A stretch of DNA of 54,196 nt, filler included, from Candidatus Desantisbacteria bacterium CG1_02_49_89 (GTDB lineage Bacteria; Desantisbacteria; UBA1551): NCBI GenBank assembly GCA_001871075.1. It is 5 parts of 5 records of this genome, joined end to end, with 100 filler letters (N's around TTAATTAATTAA, not from the genome) between each part and the next. Parts side by side here need not be neighbours in the genome. Positions count along the whole stretch, not along the records: positions 45,238 to 54,196 come from MNUP01000007.1; 4 more parts are not named here. The stretch is one strand, 5' to 3'. Every line of letters starts with the position of its first letter. The first letter of the stretch is position 1. The notes below the pieces were generated by a model. That model was not told the origin of the DNA and made no database searches. It saw only the letters and a program-made list of their open reading frames with translations. This document shows positions 9,077-53,941 of this stretch, piece by piece. A program made the position numbers and the translations under genes.

Positions 9077-9379
9077 ACATATATTACTTCTCCTTACTCA
9101 TCTTCCTAACCCATATTCTTCTTCCCATTCTATATCGTATTTCGCCCGCCCCTTTGGGGCGAGGTCTCGCCCCGATGTCCATCGGGGCGGATAGGGCAAG
9201 GCTTCTCAAAGACCCCCGCCAAACTAACTGGCGGGCAAGCTGCCAATCATTAAGGAGGGAGCCTGCGATTTGTAGCGGTGCGATTTATCGCACTTGTAGG
9301 GGTTCAATTCACCTGTCCGCCCTTGTCCGCCAATTTTTTAAGGAGGAAATCTTTAAGGTGGGAGGCTTGCGTTTGTTAA

Positions 9380-9721: not shown

Positions 9722-9835
9722 ATTTAAATGATTATTATTGAATTAATAAATCGCAAGAGGACTTTGATGTCAGGTCAAAAATATTATAAAATTGGATACA
9801 GGAAACAAATGAAGAATATAAAATCCTTTGGTGCA

Positions 9836-9935
9836 NNNNNNNNNNNNNNNNNNNNNNNNNNNNNNNNNNNNNNNNNNNNTTAATTAATTAANNNNNNNNN
9901 NNNNNNNNNNNNNNNNNNNNNNNNNNNNNNNNNNN
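9836..9935. other. Artificial contig linker
   Basis: N44-TTAATTAATTAA-N44 (six-frame stop). Confidence 0.97.
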
Positions 9936-10096
9936 AGCCCCTCACCTTTTCCCTCTCCCCATAGGGGAGAGGGCGGGGGTGAGGGGTATGGTTATTTTTT
10001 TAATCGCTGCGATCTATCCGTTATCGCTGCAATCGTCAGTTGTTCATCACCGTAATCATCAGTTAAAAATCACCGTAATCAAAAAGGTCTTCGAGG

Positions 10097-27308: not shown

Positions 27309-27669
27309 CGCGGGCGCGATTTTGCTTCCGACAACACACACTCTAACTCATCCCACTCTTACAAATACTTTTACACCGATTCTAACACGATCAACTATAA
27401 CTATCCCGACACCTTTTACTTTACTGTCTAACAAACTATCCAACTAACAAACTATCCAACTACGTTTTTAAGGAAAGGCGCCGCGTTTTAATAAGCACAG
27501 CTGCATCAAGTCTACAGGTCCGGGCTTGCCTTTATTCAGGCAGGCCCGGGCCGTATTACCGGCAGGAATCGGTGTAATCATTTGTAAAAAATCTGAGTCC
27601 CTAAGGGATTCCCGCATTTTGCTTTCATAAGAAAGCAGCGGGGAATAATCATCATAAGGAGATAAATGT

Positions 27670-28572
27670 ATGATATATTCAAATATTCTGGAGACCATAG
27701 GCAACACCCCGATAATCAGGATCAACAAGCTTAACCCGAATAACAAAGTTGACGGAGTCAATATATACGCGAAATTCGAGGGAACCAATCCCACGGGAAG
27801 CATAAAGGACAGGATCGCACTCAAAATGATCGAGCAGGCGGAAAAGGAAGGCGTCCTGGCAAAGGGCAAGACCATAATCGAGCCTACCTCAGGCAACACC
27901 GGCATAGGCCTGGCGATGATCGGCGTCGCGAAAGGTTACAAGGTCGAGATCGTGATGAGCGGAGCTGTTTCAATAGAAAGAAGGAAGATGATACAGGCGT
28001 TCGGCGCGAAAGTGACACTGACAGACCCCGGGCTGGGAACAGACGGCGCGATCAAAAAAGCCAGGGAGCTTGTGAAAAAATATCCCCGAAGGTATTTTAT
28101 GCCGGACCAGTTCACCAACAAGTATAATAAGATCGCCCATTATAAAACAACAGCCGAGGAGATCTGGAAACAGACCAGGGGCAGGATTGACTATTTTATT
28201 TCCGCGATAGGGACCTCAGGGACCCTGATGGGCGTGGGCACATACCTTAAGGAAAAGAACCCGAAGATCAAGGTGATCTCCGCCGAGCCTATTAAGGGGC
28301 ACTATATCCAGGGCCTGAAGAACATGGAAGAAGCAATAGTCCCTGCCATATACAATCCTTCTTTGCTTGATGAGGTCATAATGATCGACACGGAACAGGC
28401 GTTTGAAATGTCAAGGCGGATAGTGAAAAAAGAGGGTATTTTCGTTGGCATGAGTTCAGGCGCCGCGATGCTTGCGGCCATAAAGGTCGCCAGGAGGATC
28501 AAAAAAGGCAATATCGTCATTATCTTCCCTGACAGGGGAGAAAAGTACCTGAGCACGAACCTGTTTAAATAA
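27670..28572 (+). CDS. Cysteine synthase (CysK/CysM family)
   Basis: IGNTP, NPTGSIKDR, EPTSGNTG, GTSGT, GMSSGA, PDRGEKYLS. Confidence 0.95.
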   Translation: MIYSNILETIGNTPIIRINKLNPNNKVDGVNIYAKFEGTNPTGSIKDRIALKMIEQAEKEGVLAKGKTIIEPTSGNTGIGLAMIGVAKGYKVEIVMSGAVSIERRKMIQAFGAKVTLTDPGLGTDGAIKKARELVKKYPRRYFMPDQFTNKYNKIAHYKTTAEEIWKQTRGRIDYFISAIGTSGTLMGVGTYLKEKNPKIKVISAEPIKGHYIQGLKNMEEAIVPAIYNPSLLDEVIMIDTEQAFEMSRRIVKKEGIFVGMSSGAAMLAAIKVARRIKKGNIVIIFPDRGEKYLSTNLFK

Positions 28573-33754: not shown

Positions 33755-34129
33755 TTTCTACAACTCCCCGTTAAAGACTTTTTGTAATAAAAATAGGGAC
33801 AGACACCATTTTTTATTTTGACATTTCCACAACTTCACCAACGAAAAACAAGGTTCTGAGTGAAACGAAGGTTCTTATTTTCCTTATTTTTCAATGGAAT
33901 TCGAGATTGCTTCCCCCGACATAAAGTCGGGATCGCAATGACAGCCAAAATCCCTCTGCTGTCTCCCTTTACAAAGGGAGATTGTCGGGCTTGATAAATC
34001 AAACCCCTACATCTCAGGGCTGAAGCCCTGAGTTACATTTCGTGTTTTCGTCCGCAACGCCATCAGCTCAGCTCTGGCGCGCAGGCCCCTGCATTGAGCT
34101 GCGCAGCAGCTGCAGGGGGTAATCCGTGG

Positions 34130-35143
34130 CTAAATAATTTCTTTTATGGCCTTGACGATTTTTTCAGCTGAGGGAATGTAAAAATCTTCCATAGGCGGGG
34201 AATACGGGACCGGAATATCCGGTGCGCAGACCCGCTTGATAGGCGCGTCCAGGTAATCAAACGCCTTTTCAGCAACTGAAGCCGCTATCTCAGCCCCCCA
34301 CCCGCCCGTGTAATTGTCTTCGTGCACTATCAGGAGCCTTCCTGTCTTTTTAACCGAGTCCATAACGCATTCCCAGTCAAACGGGATCAGGGTCCGGGGA
34401 TCTATCACCTCTGCGCTTATGCCTTCTTTTTCCAGGACTGCGGCGGCGGCAAGTGATTCGTAAACCATCCGTAAGGTCGCGACAATGGTCACATCCTTAC
34501 CTTCTTTTTTGACTTCCGCTTTGCCGAACGGTATCAGGTATTCTTCGTCAGGGATCTCCTGTTCAACGTCCATCGCCCCTTCAACCTTCCTGGCGCCTTT
34601 TGCCCCGTATAATTTCTTGTGCTCAAAAACCATCACCGGGTTATCATCCCTTACGGCTGTTTTCAAAAGCCCTTTAGCGTCATAAGCTGTGCTTGGGCAG
34701 GCGATCTTGATCCCGGGCACATGGAAGAAATAGGATTCAATAGACTGGGCGTGCTGGGCTCCGCGCCGGGTCGCTCCCACAGGCACGCGCACCACCATCG
34801 GGAGTTTCACTTTTCCGCCTGACATATACCTGAGCTTTGACATGTTATTTACAAGCTGGTCCATGGCGCAGAAAGCGAAATCCCCGTACTCGAAATCAGC
34901 TATGGGCCTCATTCCTGCCATTGCCGCGCCTATGGCAATACCTATAAATCCTGACTCGGAAATCGGGGTGTCAAGTATCCGCTCATGGCCGAACTGGTCT
35001 GAAAGCCCTAAGGTAACTGTGAACGCGCCGCCGAACCCGCCTGTGATGCCGATGTCCTCGCCGATGCAAAAAACGCGCTCGTCGCGTACCATTTCTTCCC
35101 TTATCGCTTCCCTTAACGCTTCAGCAATAGACATCTTCTTCAT
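34130..35143 (-). CDS. 2-oxoacid/acetoin dehydrogenase E1 beta subunit
   Basis: GEDIG, DTPISE, AQHAQS, FEHKKLY, IDPRTL. Confidence 0.93.
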   Translation of the reverse strand: MKKMSIAEALREAIREEMVRDERVFCIGEDIGITGGFGGAFTVTLGLSDQFGHERILDTPISESGFIGIAIGAAMAGMRPIADFEYGDFAFCAMDQLVNNMSKLRYMSGGKVKLPMVVRVPVGATRRGAQHAQSIESYFFHVPGIKIACPSTAYDAKGLLKTAVRDDNPVMVFEHKKLYGAKGARKVEGAMDVEQEIPDEEYLIPFGKAEVKKEGKDVTIVATLRMVYESLAAAAVLEKEGISAEVIDPRTLIPFDWECVMDSVKKTGRLLIVHEDNYTGGWGAEIAASVAEKAFDYLDAPIKRVCAPDIPVPYSPPMEDFYIPSAEKIVKAIKEII

Positions 35144-45237: not shown

Positions 45238-45480
45238 ATAATTTTTCCTGCTGAAAACGCTTTTAGGCATAACTTTACAGTTAAGGGCAAGCGCGCTTTT
45301 AATGGCAAGCTCTATGGCTTTCCTGTTCATGACAGGCAGGACCCCGGGCATGCCCTGGCACACAGGGCAGGTATGGGTGTTCGGCTCTGCCCCGAACTCG
45401 GTTGAGCAGGAACAGAACATCTTGGATTCTGTCTTGAGGTGCACGTGCACCTCAAGCCCGATAACTACTTCATAATCCAT
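45238..45480 (-). CDS. gatB: Asp/Glu-tRNA amidotransferase subunit B (3' truncated)
   Basis: [35 protein letters not shown]. Confidence 0.97.
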
Positions 45481-45597
45481 TTTGCCTCTTAATTATGAAT
45501 TATGAATGATGAGTTATGAATCAACTGCAAGGATTTTTTAATTTAAAATTCAGGGCTTAAGCCCTGACTCCTTGACTCATAATTCATAACTCATAAC

Positions 45598-46851
45598 TCA
45601 TAATTGTATTTTAAAGAAGTCAAGCGCGTTGTCGCGGAGGAGCTTGCGGGCGAGCATAAGGCATTCCTCCTCGTCAAACCAGCCCCTTTTGTATTTTTCC
45701 TGGATAACCTGGAAAATGATCTCCCTGGCTATGCGCGAGTGAGCGTAAGCCCCTTCGGCAAATATATAATCCCCGCCAAACCCGAATATCTTGTTGTTGG
45801 GGATCGTGTCAAGCCAGTCGTGGAGTATCTTCTTAGAGGCGGTGGGCGATATCACGTACATCCAGCACATGTCCGCGTAAACGTTGGGGAAATTCTTCGC
45901 CATCACGGCGAGTTCCGAGGAATACGGGTAGCCGGCGTGAAATATGTCGAATTTCAGGCAAGGGTATCTGAAGAAAAGGTTAAGCAGGTGCACGGGGTTT
46001 GAATTCGTAAGGTAATTGCCGTTACCCTCCTGTATGCCGGTGTGGACCTGCAAAGGAAGGCCTTTCTTTTCAAGCTTCTCAAGCATCCTGTGCATCAGGA
46101 AATCCTGCAAAGGCTTGGGGTCCGTGGCTTCCTTCTTGAGGATCCTGTCAAGAACAATGCCGGCGACGGACTTGTCCGTGTCCTCGAATTTAAGGATGCG
46201 GGCGTAGGCAAGCCCGCATTTGGCAGCGCAGGCTCCGTCCCTGACAGCAGTGTCTATCGCCGCATCAATGGTCCCGGACAAGTCGTCCACCGACGCGATC
46301 TCTTTTTTGAAAGCCTTCGATATCGCGTCAATGCTTTCCCTGTTCCATATCCCGATAAGCCCGTCAGTGTAAACGACAGGCGCGAAAAAATCCCTGTCAA
46401 GCTTTCCGAAATAGTGCATGTCCTCGGGCCTAAGGGATATGTCGATCCCGGCTTTTTCCTTCAGCACCCATTTGTAGAATCCTTTTTTATTCGCAGCCGA
46501 GATCTTTTCGGAAAGCTGAGCGAAGGTTTTTCCGCTTATTTCATTTACGCCGTACAGCTCTTTTGCCGCGAAAATCAGGGCCTTACCGTAACCGGTAGTC
46601 CTTACGCATTCCCAGTAAGGAGCAAACTTTTTCCATCTTTCTTCAAGCGGCTTCCCCGTGTCCCTGCATTCATTCAGGTCTTCGGGCTTCATCCCGGCAG
46701 AGATCAGGTCGCAGGAGGCGTAGTGGGAAAACCAGTGGAATAGGTCCACCTTTTGCCCGAGGCGCTCTTCCTCGGTCTCCAGGTGCTCGTGGGTGTCTAT
46801 TATCCTTATCTCGCTTATTTCTTTTTTCAGCCTATCCTCGAAATTTTTCAT
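45598..46851 (-). CDS. Amidohydrolase superfamily protein (uronate isomerase-like/Amidohydro_2)
   Basis: IIDTHEH, QVHTG, FHAGYPY, FGFGGD. Confidence 0.85.
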   Translation of the reverse strand: MKNFEDRLKKEISEIRIIDTHEHLETEEERLGQKVDLFHWFSHYASCDLISAGMKPEDLNECRDTGKPLEERWKKFAPYWECVRTTGYGKALIFAAKELYGVNEISGKTFAQLSEKISAANKKGFYKWVLKEKAGIDISLRPEDMHYFGKLDRDFFAPVVYTDGLIGIWNRESIDAISKAFKKEIASVDDLSGTIDAAIDTAVRDGACAAKCGLAYARILKFEDTDKSVAGIVLDRILKKEATDPKPLQDFLMHRMLEKLEKKGLPLQVHTGIQEGNGNYLTNSNPVHLLNLFFRYPCLKFDIFHAGYPYSSELAVMAKNFPNVYADMCWMYVISPTASKKILHDWLDTIPNNKIFGFGGDYIFAEGAYAHSRIAREIIFQVIQEKYKRGWFDEEECLMLARKLLRDNALDFFKIQL

Positions 46852-48637: not shown

Positions 48638-49006
48638 TCAATCCATAGTTACTGTTATTTTGGTCCCTGATTTTACTTTTCGCAGCAGTTCAGGTTTCGC
48701 GGAAGTCTTTCCCACAACCACTACTTCGCTGGCAGGGACCGGTTTGTCACCGGAACTCGCAGCGGTGGGCCCGAAGAATATGCAGAGGCACTTTCCTTCA
48801 GGCCAGTACGATATGTCGCCGATATTTACGTCAAGCGTACCTCCCTTTGAAGGCGCGGTAATGCCGGTGTCAAAATATATCTCATCCCCCCAGGTTTTTA
48901 CTTTAGATTCAATGGGCAGGCGCTCGATGATCTTCTTCGCGGTCTCATTTTCCAGAAATTCCGCTTCTATGTCTCCCTGGCTGGTTTTAAAAACAACTTT
49001 TTGCAT
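48638..49006 (-). CDS. Cyclophilin-like fold protein (TM1367/DUF369-like)
   Basis: WGDEIYF, GDISYWPEGKCLCIFFGPT. Confidence 0.88.
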   Translation of the reverse strand: MQKVVFKTSQGDIEAEFLENETAKKIIERLPIESKVKTWGDEIYFDTGITAPSKGGTLDVNIGDISYWPEGKCLCIFFGPTAASSGDKPVPASEVVVVGKTSAKPELLRKVKSGTKITVTMD

Positions 49007-49010
49007 AAAC

Positions 49011-50069
49011 TCACCCTAATATTTTTTCAATTATGGGTTTTAATTTTTCTATTTCGTCGGTTGCTGTATTTAAAATTGTTTCGGGATCAATAGATATGTT
49101 AGAATATTTAAAAAAACCTAAATATCCTTCTTTTTCCTCGAAATTATTTTTTTCAATATAATCCATTATTAAATTTTTCTTCTCCCCGGTAATTTTTCGT
49201 GATATAATACGTGTAAAAAATTTATATTGTTCGGTTGTTTCTTCTCGGCACAACCCACAACAAATAGTAAACCCATTATTCCACCACAACACAGACTCAA
49301 TAAAGGTGCCATCTTTACTTTGGTATTTAGAAAATGGGTCCCTTTCAACACCAAAACCATTAGCCCAATCTCCAAATTTGGCTTCTAGTTTTTTACATAA
49401 ATCCAAAATAAGTTTTTTATAAAGATGGGATGGACCGCCCGTTTTCCCAACTGCTTTGCTTCCCGGGTAAGAACCTTCACTTTCGTAACCATCTTCGCCT
49501 ATCGGCTGAGTCATAATGTATCTATTTTCTAAATCTTCAAAAAATTCAAACTTAAAAAATTTATAAATAATATCAACTTTATTGGCTACGGTTGTTCTTG
49601 TAGGTCTTTCAGCAATAAAATTATCTTTAAAACTTGGTGCAAACACAACATCAATAATTGTATTACGATCTAGACGAAACTCATTATTAAAAAAAGATTC
49701 GTATTTTTTATGTAACAAGGTATAATCAATATTACCTTTTTCAAGTTGGTCCTTTACAATTTGTTCTATTTCAAAAATTGGCAATTTACTTAACCATGTA
49801 GTATAATCTGAAACCTGTCTAATTACATCCGCCGGGGCTTCAACATTTTTTACTTCAACAACATTAAATCTTCCTAAGCTATCTATTCCGAGCAAATCTA
49901 AAAATCTACCTCTTTCTGTTTTGATTTCACGGCCTAAATATAAGATTTTTTCTCCAGTTATTTCACTGTTGATCAATAAAAGATCTTGAACAATTTTTTC
50001 ATAGCCAATTTGCTTCCTGTTAATTTCCATTGCTTTATTATCTTTATTAATTTTAAACAAATAACTCAT
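49011..50069 (-). CDS. NucS-C/DUF91-like PD-(D/E)XK endonuclease domain protein
   Basis: EKIVQD, LDLLGID, VVEVK, QVSDY; AT-rich. Confidence 0.75.
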   Translation of the reverse strand: MSYLFKINKDNKAMEINRKQIGYEKIVQDLLLINSEITGEKILYLGREIKTERGRFLDLLGIDSLGRFNVVEVKNVEAPADVIRQVSDYTTWLSKLPIFEIEQIVKDQLEKGNIDYTLLHKKYESFFNNEFRLDRNTIIDVVFAPSFKDNFIAERPTRTTVANKVDIIYKFFKFEFFEDLENRYIMTQPIGEDGYESEGSYPGSKAVGKTGGPSHLYKKLILDLCKKLEAKFGDWANGFGVERDPFSKYQSKDGTFIESVLWWNNGFTICCGLCREETTEQYKFFTRIISRKITGEKKNLIMDYIEKNNFEEKEGYLGFFKYSNISIDPETILNTATDEIEKLKPIIEKILG

Positions 50070-50114
50070 TTATCCCCCTTGTAAGATATGGTCACGGAAT
50101 GGAGATATTACTTT

Positions 50115-51373
50115 TCATTTTATCCTTTTCTTTTTCAATTTAATAGAAAGTTTTGCCACCATATCCTTCAATTCTTCTTCCTGTCTTTGCAGTTCTTTAT
50201 ATTCTCGCAAAGCGCCGGTTTGGTCACCGACTTTAATTTTATCAGTAATAAGCTTGGGTAAGAAATCCATATATCCGGGAGAAAGATTCTTTGCTTTTTG
50301 AAATATATCTACAGCAAGGTTATATTTTCCTAATTTCTCATAACAACAACCGACTTCAAAATATGCGGAAGAAAAAAAGGGCAGTAATTCTATCGCTTCT
50401 TTATAATTTTCTACAGCTCTTTCATAATTACCTATTCTGCTATAACAAAAAGCTAAATCATAAAATATGTTACCGCTTTTAGCTAAGTCTGGCCCTCGTT
50501 CTAAAGCCTCTTTAAAAAATCCTATTGCTCTTTTATACTGCTTTAAATCCATGAACATTTGCCCATAGAGATGAAAGATTTTATAAATCTCAGGAATATT
50601 TGTACGTATTGCTTTTTTATAAATTGAGGCTACATCTTTATAACGCCGTATCTTCTCATAGACTAAACCAAGATTAATATACGAGTCAATAAGAGCTGGT
50701 TTAAGTGAGATGGCTTTTTTGTAAGATTTTATGGCTTCATTATAATTCCTTAATTCTGTAAAAGCTTTGCCAAGATTATGCCATACACGTGCATCTTTTG
50801 GATTTTTATTCAGGGCTTTCTTAAATTGCTCTGCTGCTAAATCATATTTCATATCTTCAATATTTTTGCATCCTTTTAAAAAATTGATTCCTAAATATTT
50901 TTTATCTTCTAAATTAAATTCCTCAATCCCTTTTCCGCTGACAATAATACTTCCCATAAAAACCAAAGCTTCATTATCAGCTATTCTAAACCGTAAAAGA
51001 CCGCATTTTTTACCTTTATTATTTTTTAAAGTCAAGTTTTTACAATTAGGGTAAAAGAATTGCGAAAAAATTTCCTTATCATAAAAAATAATGATCTGCC
51101 CTGGTTTTTTTAAAATTGTTGAAGATAAAGCTTCATTATACTTATTATTTTCTTCTATATTAGCGCTATTCTTCTGGTTAAAAACTAAAAACCTTCAAAT
51201 TCCAACGTTTCATATGTTTTGTTAAAAGAAATTCTTCCGCGTTCCTCACCTTCTCTATTCTTTAGATAGGAAGTTGATTTTCTCTTACAGCGAAAATGGG
51301 CTGAAAAAGAATCTCCTATAAAACTTATAATGATCTGTCCGGAGCTTTCATCAAACGCATGTTCTTTTTGCAT
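50115..51373 (-). pseudogene. Frameshifted gene: tandem duplicated ~55-aa domain + TPR repeats (~419 aa if joined)
   Basis: TPR frame stays open upstream to ~51194; one extra T in the T5 run (51187-51191) joins it to ORF 51185-51373. Confidence 0.65.
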
Positions 51374-51595
51374 TTATATACTCTCAATATAATTTTAAAG
51401 CTGATCAAAGGAACGCAGGATAAATCCTGCGGCTACCATTCTATCAAATGTGCCAATATCATGCCTGAGGCAGACCCGCCTAAACCCAGATGGCGGGAAT
51501 GGCACCGCTACATTTGACCTTTGAGCTTTGAGCTGCAGTTAACGCATTTCCTGCCCGCCTGCCACATTTATCGCCTGGCCACTCATATAGCATAT

Positions 51596-52684
51596 TCATT
51601 TTAAACGTTTATTATGCTCAAGTAATGACCGTTCCTTTTTCAGCTCTGCAACGAGCTCTTTTTTAGTAGGCAGGTAAAACTTATATTTGGAAGCAAAAAT
51701 TTGTCTTTCTCCCCCGGGTAAAGTATAACGGACCACTGCATCATTTTTATCCGTGCAAAGAACTATCCCGATAGGATGACTCTCCCCCTCCTGTCTCATT
51801 TCACGGTCATAGTAATTAACATACATCTGCATTTGGCCTAAATCCTGATGCAGAAGTCTGCCCACTTTAAGGTCAATTAAGACAAAGCATCTCAGCAGTC
51901 GGTTATAGAATACCAAATCAATGTAAAAGTGGTCGCTCTCGAGGGTAATTCTTTTCTGCCTTGCGACAAACGAGAAACCTTTGCCTAATTCAAGGATGAA
52001 TTCTTTCAAATGCTCAATCAGAGCATTTTCCAAAGTTGTTTCCCTTAGACTGGGTTCCTCTTTTAGTCCTGCAAATTCTAAAATATAAGGGTCTTTAATC
52101 AGGTCATCTGACTTTTGAATCTCCTGTCCTTTTTTAGCCAAGCGGAGTAGCCCTTTTTTGTCCTTACTTAATGCCAAGCGCTCAAAGAGAAGAGAACTCA
52201 TTTGCCTTTCCAATTCCCTGGTTGACCAATGGTTATTCACGCATTCTATCTCATAAAAACTGCGGGCATCAGGATTATCTACTTTTAGAAGAAAGCGATA
52301 GTGTGTCCATGTTAATTTTGAACGCACTGCGTTCAATCTTGGGAATTCGTCACGCATCGCGTGACTTTTTTCAGATTCTTTACGCACTGTGTGTAGTTCT
52401 GGATAAACAAGATAGAACTGCCGCATGTATTTTAAATTTGTCTCTGTAAATCCCTTACCGACTTCGGCAGTCAATCGTAAAGATAATTCGTTAATAAGAA
52501 ATAGCCCGTATTTCGCCTGCTTTTTACCCCTCTGTTCTTCTTCTACGATTTCTCTACCGATGAGCCAGTATGCCCGCACCATCTCAGTATTGACCGCGTA
52601 TAATGCCCTATTGCGCGATTCTTCAATTATGGTGCAAACTCGTTCATATATAGAAATTGATTTCTCAATATCTCTTTTTTTCAT
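51596..52684 (-). CDS. YhcG/DUF1016 family PD-(D/E)XK nuclease
   Basis: YWLIGREI, LTWTHY, WSTRELERQ, KDPYILEF, IDLK, GQMQMYVNY. Confidence 0.95.
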   Translation of the reverse strand: MKKRDIEKSISIYERVCTIIEESRNRALYAVNTEMVRAYWLIGREIVEEEQRGKKQAKYGLFLINELSLRLTAEVGKGFTETNLKYMRQFYLVYPELHTVRKESEKSHAMRDEFPRLNAVRSKLTWTHYRFLLKVDNPDARSFYEIECVNNHWSTRELERQMSSLLFERLALSKDKKGLLRLAKKGQEIQKSDDLIKDPYILEFAGLKEEPSLRETTLENALIEHLKEFILELGKGFSFVARQKRITLESDHFYIDLVFYNRLLRCFVLIDLKVGRLLHQDLGQMQMYVNYYDREMRQEGESHPIGIVLCTDKNDAVVRYTLPGGERQIFASKYKFYLPTKKELVAELKKERSLLEHNKRLK

Positions 52685-52718
52685 TTATCGTGTCTCCTCA
52701 TCTTTTTATCAAAAGCGA

Positions 52719-52952
52719 GGGAATATCCAATTACTTTTAGCTGCCGCGCATGTCCGCCAATCTTCTGGGTGGAAGGTGCTTTCTCCACCTCTGAATATTT
52801 GTCGGATCTTCGACCGTAGCGGGCTTCAAGAAATTTTGCCTGAAACTGCGGCCGGGCAAAATTTCCAGAGTGAGCAGGTAATCAGATGCGAACGGCCCGC
52901 CGAGGGAAACACCGACAAAAGGCAGCTATTACCTGTTTGAAGCGATATTCCC
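52719..52952 (+). ncRNA. Candidate structured RNA/MITE with six stems and a pseudoknot
   Basis: Multiple exact complementary pairs (listed in the finding); G-U pairs favour the plus strand. Confidence 0.6.
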
Positions 52953-52956
52953 GAGC

Positions 52957-53754
52957 CTACCGCATTTCCTGCCCGCCGGTCACGTTGATCGCCTGGCCTG
53001 TCATATAGCCTGCCTCGTCGCCTGCCAGGAACACGAGCACGTTGCAGATGTCCTCATACGCGCAGCCCCTGCCCAGCGGCACCTGTTCGGCGTATTTCTT
53101 GCGCACTTCCTCTTTGGAGATGCCCCATTTTTTCGCGTATTGCTCGTAGAGGCTGTCCTGCCACAGCGGCGAGTCTAACAGGTTTCCGGGGCATATCGCA
53201 TTTACGCGAACACCATATGGAGCAAGGTCAAGAGCTATGCTCTGCGTCAGTCCGATGCCCCCGAACTTGGACGCCGCGTACGCGGAGTTCCAGAAACTGC
53301 CTTTTTTCCCTGATTTTGAATTTATCTGGATGATAACGCCGGATTTCTGCTCCTTCATAACCTTAGCCGCTTCCTTCGCGCAGAGGAAATAGCCGACAAG
53401 GTTCACTTCCAGGACCTTGCGCCACGCGTCGTCCGGGAATTCCGTGATCTCGAACGCCTTGAGTATCCCGGCGTTGGAAACCATGAGGTCAAGGCGCCTG
53501 TATTTCACGGTTGCTTCCTTCACCATCTTTTCAACATCAGACGCTTTTGTCACGTCCACCTGCACGCCGAAGGACCTGTCCTTCCCGAATTCCGCGTTTA
53601 TCCTTTCAGCGACCTTCTTAGCCCCGTCAAAATTCATATCCGCGACTATTACTTTTGCGCCCTCGGCGCCCAGGCGCAGAGAGATGGCCTCGCCCAGGCC
53701 CTGCGCTCCTCCGGTAACAACGGCTATTTTATCCCTTAACAGCGGCTCGCACAT
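52957..53754 (-). CDS. srlD: Sorbitol-6-phosphate 2-dehydrogenase-like SDR
   Basis: TGGAQGLG, QINSKSGKKGS, YAASKFGG, GNLLDSPLW, TGQAINVTGGQ. Confidence 0.8.
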   Translation of the reverse strand: MCEPLLRDKIAVVTGGAQGLGEAISLRLGAEGAKVIVADMNFDGAKKVAERINAEFGKDRSFGVQVDVTKASDVEKMVKEATVKYRRLDLMVSNAGILKAFEITEFPDDAWRKVLEVNLVGYFLCAKEAAKVMKEQKSGVIIQINSKSGKKGSFWNSAYAASKFGGIGLTQSIALDLAPYGVRVNAICPGNLLDSPLWQDSLYEQYAKKWGISKEEVRKKYAEQVPLGRGCAYEDICNVLVFLAGDEAGYMTGQAINVTGGQEMR

Positions 53755-53941
53755 TTCTTTCCTCCAATTTTCCAAGAAACCACAGAGGACACAGAGAAAA
53801 TAGTTTTACTCTGTGACCTCCTGAAAACTATATTCTGAAGATACTAAGAGAGCACACGGAGCTTTCATTGTATTTGAATTTAATATACCCGCAAATCTCT
53901 GTGCACTCTGTGGTATATTTTTATTTGAATCTCAATCTGTT

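Follow-up and report, generated by a model that had tools for sequence, protein, structure and literature searches.

Between srlD and yhcG of Candidatus Desantisbacteria bacterium CG1_02_49_89 lies a 242-nt self-complementary element that we tentatively read as a mosaic, palindromic, non-coding spacer that travelled as a passenger within a yhcG defence cassette set down at the srlD 3' end. This is a possible account, held somewhat short of even confidence. Because the srlD tail recurs directly after yhcG, the element and yhcG together read as a 1.4-kb insertion of which the element is the spacer. An earlier sequence-only reading of this DNA missed that key context, namely that, as judged by alignment, the element sits inside an insertion bordered by a diverged second copy, 52 bp long, of the srlD tail. 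Below, the window is the whole stretch of DNA analysed (54,196 nt, filler included).

Place, helices and fold of the element

The element sits in a 272-nt gap between srlD and yhcG, both on the minus strand. The gene names given in the sequence-only reading are confirmed by an srlD equivalog match of 387.7 bits (cut-off 307) and a YhcG/DUF1016 match. The features of the gap and its flanks are as follows.

52957..53775, minus strand: srlD, sorbitol-6-phosphate dehydrogenase, SDR family
52715..52956, no strand assigned: self-complementary element, with nested helices P1-P4 and an apical 11-bp hairpin (from folding)
52685..52714, minus strand: short AT-rich yhcG leader with a GAGGAG ribosome-binding site (read from the sequence)
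51596..52684, minus strand: yhcG, a DUF1016_N plus YhcG_C PDDEXK nuclease (PADLOC PDC-S02 candidate defence system, E 4.6e-144)

The pairing search returned these helices within the element.

52719-27/52944-52: helix, 9 bp, perfect
52738-45/52921-28: helix, 8 bp
52798-805/52912-19: helix, 8 bp
52819-24/52895-900: helix, 6 bp
52830-40/52855-65: apical hairpin, 11 bp
52768-73/52784-89: GGTGGA/TCCACC hairpin, 6 bp
52875-82/52928-35: crossing helix, 8 perfect bp, extending to 11 bp only with two G-U pairs on the plus strand
52928..52943: 3' strand shared by the crossing helix (8 bp with 52875-82) and a 7-bp helix (with 52823-29), which defines alternative fold B and lies outside the shared core described below

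All helices previously described by eye were found, and the minimum-free-energy fold recovers the nested set. P1, the outer stem, gains two more G-C pairs beyond a tandem G-A mismatch and ends 1 nt from the srlD stop codon. With a GC content of 51%, against ~53-58% in srlD tiles and ~40% in yhcG tiles, the spacer resembles the srlD-side DNA and not yhcG.

The pairings are non-random. The element holds five perfect helices of at least 8 bp, whereas 300 dinucleotide shuffles average 0.45 such helices and never exceed 4. In folding energy, z is -3.18 for the plus strand, where none of 200 shuffles does as well, and -2.51 for the minus strand, where 3 of 200 do. By GC-corrected energy, 11 (plus) and 6 (minus) of 462 window tiles of 234 nt lie below the element, which is thus in the top 1-2% of the window by fold energy, notable but not unique. 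Tiles whose GC-corrected folds are better on one or both strands occur at ~45280-45630, 33814-34165, 9127-9360, 9829-10060 and 27496-27730, and these may be further structured repeats.

The nested fold has nearly the same energy on either strand (-85.9 kcal/mol on plus, -85.0 on minus), with 5 G-U pairs on plus and 7 on minus, so the suggestion that G-U pairs favour the plus strand is not borne out for it. A plus-strand preference appears only in the crossing and alternative helices. The five long helices are all perfect Watson-Crick, and this, together with the strand symmetry, is as expected for inverted duplication at the DNA level. Of the long pseudoknot proposed earlier, the crossing helix itself is present, with its 8 perfect pairs; the pseudoknot is not established, because a single perfect helix of 8 bp is expected ~0.45 times by chance. 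The 7-bp helix (52823-29/52937-43) abuts the crossing helix, and together they make the two-domain fold B. On the plus strand fold B reaches -87.7 against an optimum of -90.0 kcal/mol (a gap of 2.3), and on the minus strand -77.6 against -87.0 (a gap of 9.4). The abutting of both helices on one 16-nt strand looks designed, with a chance of ~1% by a post hoc estimate made without simulation.

Split inverted copies and a core shared across the aquifer

Each side of the element carries blocks that recur, inverted, on the other, and on the left side two such blocks are split by a module.

52830..52874, no strand assigned: 45-nt hairpin module, splitting GCTTCAA / CAGGTAAT, the inverted copy of 52928-52943
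52746..52797, no strand assigned: 52-nt module with the GGTGGA/TCCACC hairpin, splitting TAGCTGCC / TTTGTCGG, the inverted copy of 52912-52928

Reverse-complemented, 52928-43 gives GCTTCAA-A-CAGGTAAT; on the left, 45 nt stand between GCTTCAA and CAGGTAAT. Likewise, the reverse complement of 52895-52928 is TAGCTGCC-T-TTTGTCGG-(11 nt)-GCGGGC, and its left counterpart runs TAGCTGCC, 52 nt, TTTGTCGG, 13 nt, GCGGGC. One block is transposed relative to the mirror order, which yields the crossing helix and thus the apparent pseudoknot. The left half therefore reads as an inverted duplication of the right half with nested hairpin insertions, suggestive of a history at the DNA level. Selection on the helices could also produce the all-or-nothing pattern of blocks.

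Contigs of four aquifer runs (X8, X21, X23 and X24) were placed on the region. The whole arrangement occurs, with zero differences, on one 1,236-nt contig of X8. An inner part recurs more widely.

52867..52925, no strand assigned: inner 58-nt core, at least 85% identical in other contigs of runs X8 and X21, which then diverge

The further contigs match only from 52867 or 52882 to 52923 or 52925 and are then unlike the element (three loose-end records in X8, two in X21). Depth in the bin 52833-52939 is 210 against 65 in X8 and 15.8 against about 3-4 in X21, and the extra depth follows that of this genome across both runs (~145 over 65, and 13 over 3-4). At least three further contigs carry the core, their depth tracking this genome in two runs. 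Because the extra depth scales in this way, the other copies may sit in the same genome. Within the core are the 3' strands of P4 and P3 and most of that of P2, along with the crossing helix's 5' strand. Since the contigs share only 52867-52925, the shared part excludes the outer stem P1, some of the second stem P2, the 7-bp helix and the crossing helix's 3' strand. In the upstream flank of one relative, 19 of 30 bases are kept (loose-end consensus, by eye), and two apical pairs of the 11-bp hairpin are changed without compensation (also by eye). In one other copy the core is followed on the plus strand by GGGAGGG-TTTT-ATG, resembling a gene start.

These copies bring the element nearer to the structured MITE that had been offered as one option, in that a 58-nt part recurs and inverted copies carry nested hairpin modules. 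It also resembles MITEs in its size of 234-242 bp, its perfect 9-bp terminal inverted repeat (52719-27/52944-52) and its lack of coding content. A classical MITE was considered and rejected, because what other contigs share is an inner part rather than the termini, and the candidate target duplication, only a 2-bp GA on each flank (1 in 16 by chance), is unconvincing.

Look-alikes were sought more broadly. We compared 160 YhcG loci, whose homologues are all at most 61% identical among the matches listed; closer YhcG relatives exist outside this set (68-79% identical, plus one identical protein). Sequence relatives of the element (blastn, nhmmer) were found at 0 of the 160 loci among the matches listed (homologues at most 61% identical), as were structural relatives by a single-sequence covariance model (0 of 160, among the matches listed). 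The same three methods found no second copy in the 54-kb window. A blastn search of plasmid and phage collections gave no match, and three exact patterns gave 0 matches in viral contigs, the first of them crossing the core boundary and so unable to match other copies. Across 802 sampled Omnitrophota and Planctomycetota genomes (401 + 401) and 5 more, the DNA search returned only hits of 25-37 nt with a per-genome E of at least 2e-4; the two short genome hits on the core are both in coding DNA. Aligned with the DNA downstream of the left-over srlD tail, the element scores 17 against a shuffle mean of 17.5, with no similarity.

That the element belongs to no known RNA family holds at the gathering cut-offs of Rfam 15, where nothing fell below E 0.5 and the matches up to E 10 score far below those cut-offs (best 16.5 bits for mir-725, cut-off 76; 12.9 for sR43, cut-off 45; 11.7 for gyrA RNA, cut-off 45). 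ARAGORN found no tRNA or tmRNA within the window. Six terminator-like sites were called, none of them in 52685-52956, so by this test the element has no intrinsic terminator. No promoter-like site was called in or beside it, including upstream on the plus strand and between srlD and yhcG. In the RNA run X24, whose contigs cannot show absence, one 151-nt contig lies inside yhcG and none on the element. The proposal of an undescribed structured ncRNA or ribozyme thus gains no support, as the nested fold has no strand preference, the 160 YhcG loci hold no look-alike and no promoter-like site adjoins.

A duplicated srlD tail around the element and yhcG

The insertion is bracketed by two copies of the srlD tail, both placed by alignment.

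52958..53009, minus strand: direct-repeat copy 1, the working srlD 3' end (YMTGQAINVTGGQEMR, then stop)
51540..51591, minus strand: direct-repeat copy 2, the left-over srlD tail (YMSGQAINVAGGQEMR, then stop), immediately past the yhcG stop codon

The copies match at 45 of 52 bases (87%), covering the last 17 srlD codons and the stop. They are 1,418 bp apart, with only the element and yhcG between them. yhcG is the long ORF of the insert identified by Pfam; the ORFs listed there also include a 171-aa frame antisense to yhcG. Six of the eight differences between the copies are at third codon positions (binomial P ~0.02), and the stop codon marks the exact end of the homology. The working tail fits the family consensus YMTGQA.NVTGGQEMR, and the left-over tail deviates from it at two positions. 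This pattern suggests that the copies are the tails of two different SDR genes brought together, and not a duplicate decaying in place.

Several observations concern the surroundings. A 1,895-nt contig of X8, as deep as this genome (63.6 against 65.2), matches only the srlD tail at 52959-53033, with 10 differences; it would carry a third version of an SDR tail, perhaps that of a paralogue within this genome. The left-over tail is in frame with yhcG just after its TGA (51596-51541, minus strand), and read-through would add 18 residues, probably a coincidence. Between 51036 and 51595 is a 560-nt gap with no convincing gene, and the terminator-like hairpin there (51431-51414, minus strand) is probably the original srlD terminator. 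An AT-rich island (48850-51400; 27-35% GC against 46% in the window) adjoins the insertion. It encodes a weak PADLOC PDC-S11 candidate match (49011-50069) and a TPR protein (50115-51035), and probably represents an island of defence or accessory genes downstream of srlD. The contigs of X8, X21, X23 and X24, which drop rare forms, show no joint that skips the insert.

Insertion with long target duplication was reportedly described for restriction-modification genes by Nobusato in 2000. In the parts of Furuta 2010 (PMC2853133) drawn on here, it is reported for restriction and other defence genes and recognised by a repeat >30 bp, an insert <20 kb and no other mobility gene. The locus has a repeat of 52 bp and an insert of 1,418 bp without a mobility gene. 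Those parts of PMC2853133 also state that the repeats often span a stop codon, describe the solitary nuclease gene mcrA as inserted in this way, and propose a release-and-reinvade cycle for such cassettes. It is thus the context, not the element, that resembles long target duplication as described in those parts, both being a small nuclease unit without transposase or integrase, with a direct repeat >30 bp over the stop codon of a neighbour that is left intact. The locus differs in having a solitary PDDEXK nuclease in place of a restriction and modification pair, as does mcrA in the same portions of PMC2853133. It differs further in that its repeat copies are only 87% alike and look like the tails of two SDR genes, and in the 242-nt folded spacer inside the unit.

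Direct repeats of 15-259 bp flank yhcG at 16 of the 160 YhcG loci, among the matches listed. We analysed 15 of these, leaving out L142, where the repeat lies far off and is weak. At 8 of the 15, the upstream repeat contains or adjoins the end of a co-oriented frame lying upstream. At L081, L115, L139, L091, L022, L114 and others, from unrelated phyla, yhcG is tightly bracketed by direct repeats of 26-259 bp, and at such loci the duplicated sequence is often the 3' end of a frame lying upstream in the same orientation. An enrichment of flanking repeats at yhcG is not established, with 15 of 154 against 5 of 143 shifted control intervals (P 0.037), and 7 of 116 against 5 of 143 when flanks are equal (P 0.38). 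The gap from the upstream repeat to the yhcG start is at most 63 nt in 8 of the 15 repeat-flanked cassettes. Gaps of at least 79 nt contain simple hairpins, not a closed multi-helix fold, and 4 of the 6 other gaps of at least 100 nt fold better than shuffles (z -2.1 to -2.7). The yhcG cassettes do not need the element.

Possible origins and what they would mean

How might such a spacer have arisen? The imported block would comprise the srlD tail, the spacer and yhcG. The element would be mosaic palindromic DNA formed from inverted copies of a core of ~35-60 nt, the copies being interrupted by two small hairpin modules and one block being transposed. We infer an origin as a repeat, probably in intergenic DNA downstream of an SDR gene, a site of structured repeats in the aquifer community, from which the element would have hitch-hiked as the yhcG cassette landed at the srlD 3' end. 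Any activity would be passive, the closed structure perhaps serving as an intercistronic barrier in a minus-strand srlD-yhcG co-transcript. Such a barrier would, conceivably, protect the srlD 3' end and damp expression of the nuclease; against this, no terminator-like site is called in the element. Several points weigh against the mosaic reading itself. Perfect blocks are split by fully unlike blocks, a pattern that a palindrome decaying neutrally would not leave and that could point to selection on particular helices. There is no second copy in 54 kb, and membership of a repeat family rests on one contig-placement result. Finally, fold B is predicted to be near the optimum on the plus strand only.

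REP, BIME and REPIN-type elements are intergenic palindromic repeats, and such elements stabilise upstream mRNA. The element is likewise intergenic, just after a stop codon, and likewise made of inverted copies with perfect stems and nested hairpin modules; its core recurs elsewhere at a depth similar to that of this genome. It is, however, far larger and more branched than a REP unit (242 nt, five long-range helices), and has no second copy in 54 kb. With riboswitch-like or attenuator leaders it shares two near-isoenergetic, mutually exclusive folds, on the plus strand. Unlike them, it has these folds on a strand that does not suit the gene downstream, and it shows no conservation, expression platform or Rfam relative in the searches made.

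Could the element act as RNA? A cis-acting yhcG leader on the minus strand, tuning or gating translation of, or read-through into, a potentially toxic nuclease, would fit its sense orientation directly upstream of the yhcG ribosome-binding site, the UUUU after the closing helix and the small hairpin that reaches the edge of that site. Co-transcription of srlD and yhcG is likely, because no promoter-like site lies between them. The well-folded gaps of four other cassettes also favour a leader. We nonetheless consider such a leader unlikely, given the lack of a look-alike at the 160 YhcG loci (among the matches listed, all at most 61% identical), leaders of at most 63 nt in 8 of 15 repeat-flanked cassettes, the poor alternative fold on the minus strand (-77.6 vs -87.0) and the absence of a called terminator-like site. 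The sequence-only reading had offered a structured RNA with a pseudoknot, and in that line the element could be an independent plus-strand RNA, structured or bistable, with a pseudoknot or two alternative folds. On that strand no promoter-like site was called upstream, and the RNA would run into srlD antisense with no gene downstream. The core shared with other copies also leaves out P1, some of P2 and the crossing helix's 3' strand. The uncompensated changes in two apical pairs of the 11-bp hairpin in one relative (by eye) and the lack of an Rfam relative also count against it. We regard it as improbable, even with the plus-strand z-score of -3.18, the three pairs that the crossing helix gains only on that strand, a fold B within 2.3 kcal/mol of the optimum only there, and the GGGAGGG-TTTT-ATG that follows one other core copy. 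To the same degree improbable is a bistable RNA or DNA module of a small aquifer family, its plus strand switching between folds 2.3 kcal/mol apart, that would travel with a yhcG cassette hopping between the conserved C-terminal coding tails of SDR genes and carrying its own tail copy.

Other readings place the element at the DNA level or in a former gene. Template switching at the insertion junction may leave functionless filler, with nearby and distant pieces in direct or inverted order. In line with this, the element lies exactly where the duplicated srlD tail meets the short yhcG leader, it is pieced together from short, perfect inverted copies with one block transposed, and a 58-nt piece of it also occurs elsewhere in the community. 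Filler is usually tens of bases long, not 240, no source for the other pieces was found within the window, and random patching would not predict helices that nest so neatly into a single closed fold, which together make this origin rather unlikely. A cis-acting DNA site for cassette mobility or replication, such as a folded single-strand origin or a recombination structure in a looped-out circle, we judge highly improbable. Most repeat-flanked yhcG cassettes are too tight to hold one, the insert has no replication or recombinase gene, and no insert-skipping joint is seen in the contigs of four runs, a weak point as contigs drop rare forms. In its favour, the structure is symmetric at the DNA level, and recombination between its two repeats could release the cassette as a loop, in keeping with the release and reinvasion proposed in the consulted parts of PMC2853133. 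The slimmest chance goes to a decayed fragment of a minus-strand protein gene. A frame is open from 52925 to 52737 (62 codons, with a GxSxG-like GVSLGG motif), the loose ends of other copies stay open in frame upstream of the core (by eye), and a chance blastn hit in one genome (G260) falls on a stretch coding for GFSLGG. Searches with the frame gave nothing at E <0.1 in Pfam and PDB and no longer protein at E <=10, however, and tblastn and tblastx against the YhcG loci gave no match. One relative has a stop ten codons past the core, with only 2 of 8 changed codons synonymous (by eye), and by estimate roughly one in four such regions would hold an open frame this long.

Should the mosaic reading be true, the element would caution structure-based hunts for ncRNAs that mobile DNA can come to look like a multi-stem, pseudoknotted RNA through inverted duplication and the nested insertion of hairpins. 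The context adds a case of a solitary defence nuclease gene at the 3' end of another gene, with a duplicated tail. The mainly synonymous differences between the tails hint that the cassette carries a copy of its target between different SDR genes. If a hopping bistable module were the true account, the third-position bias would record, for the first time in nature, the 'release and reinvade' step. Conservation of the element, if it were shown, would instead make it a new module, of RNA or DNA, linked to the mobility of defence genes.
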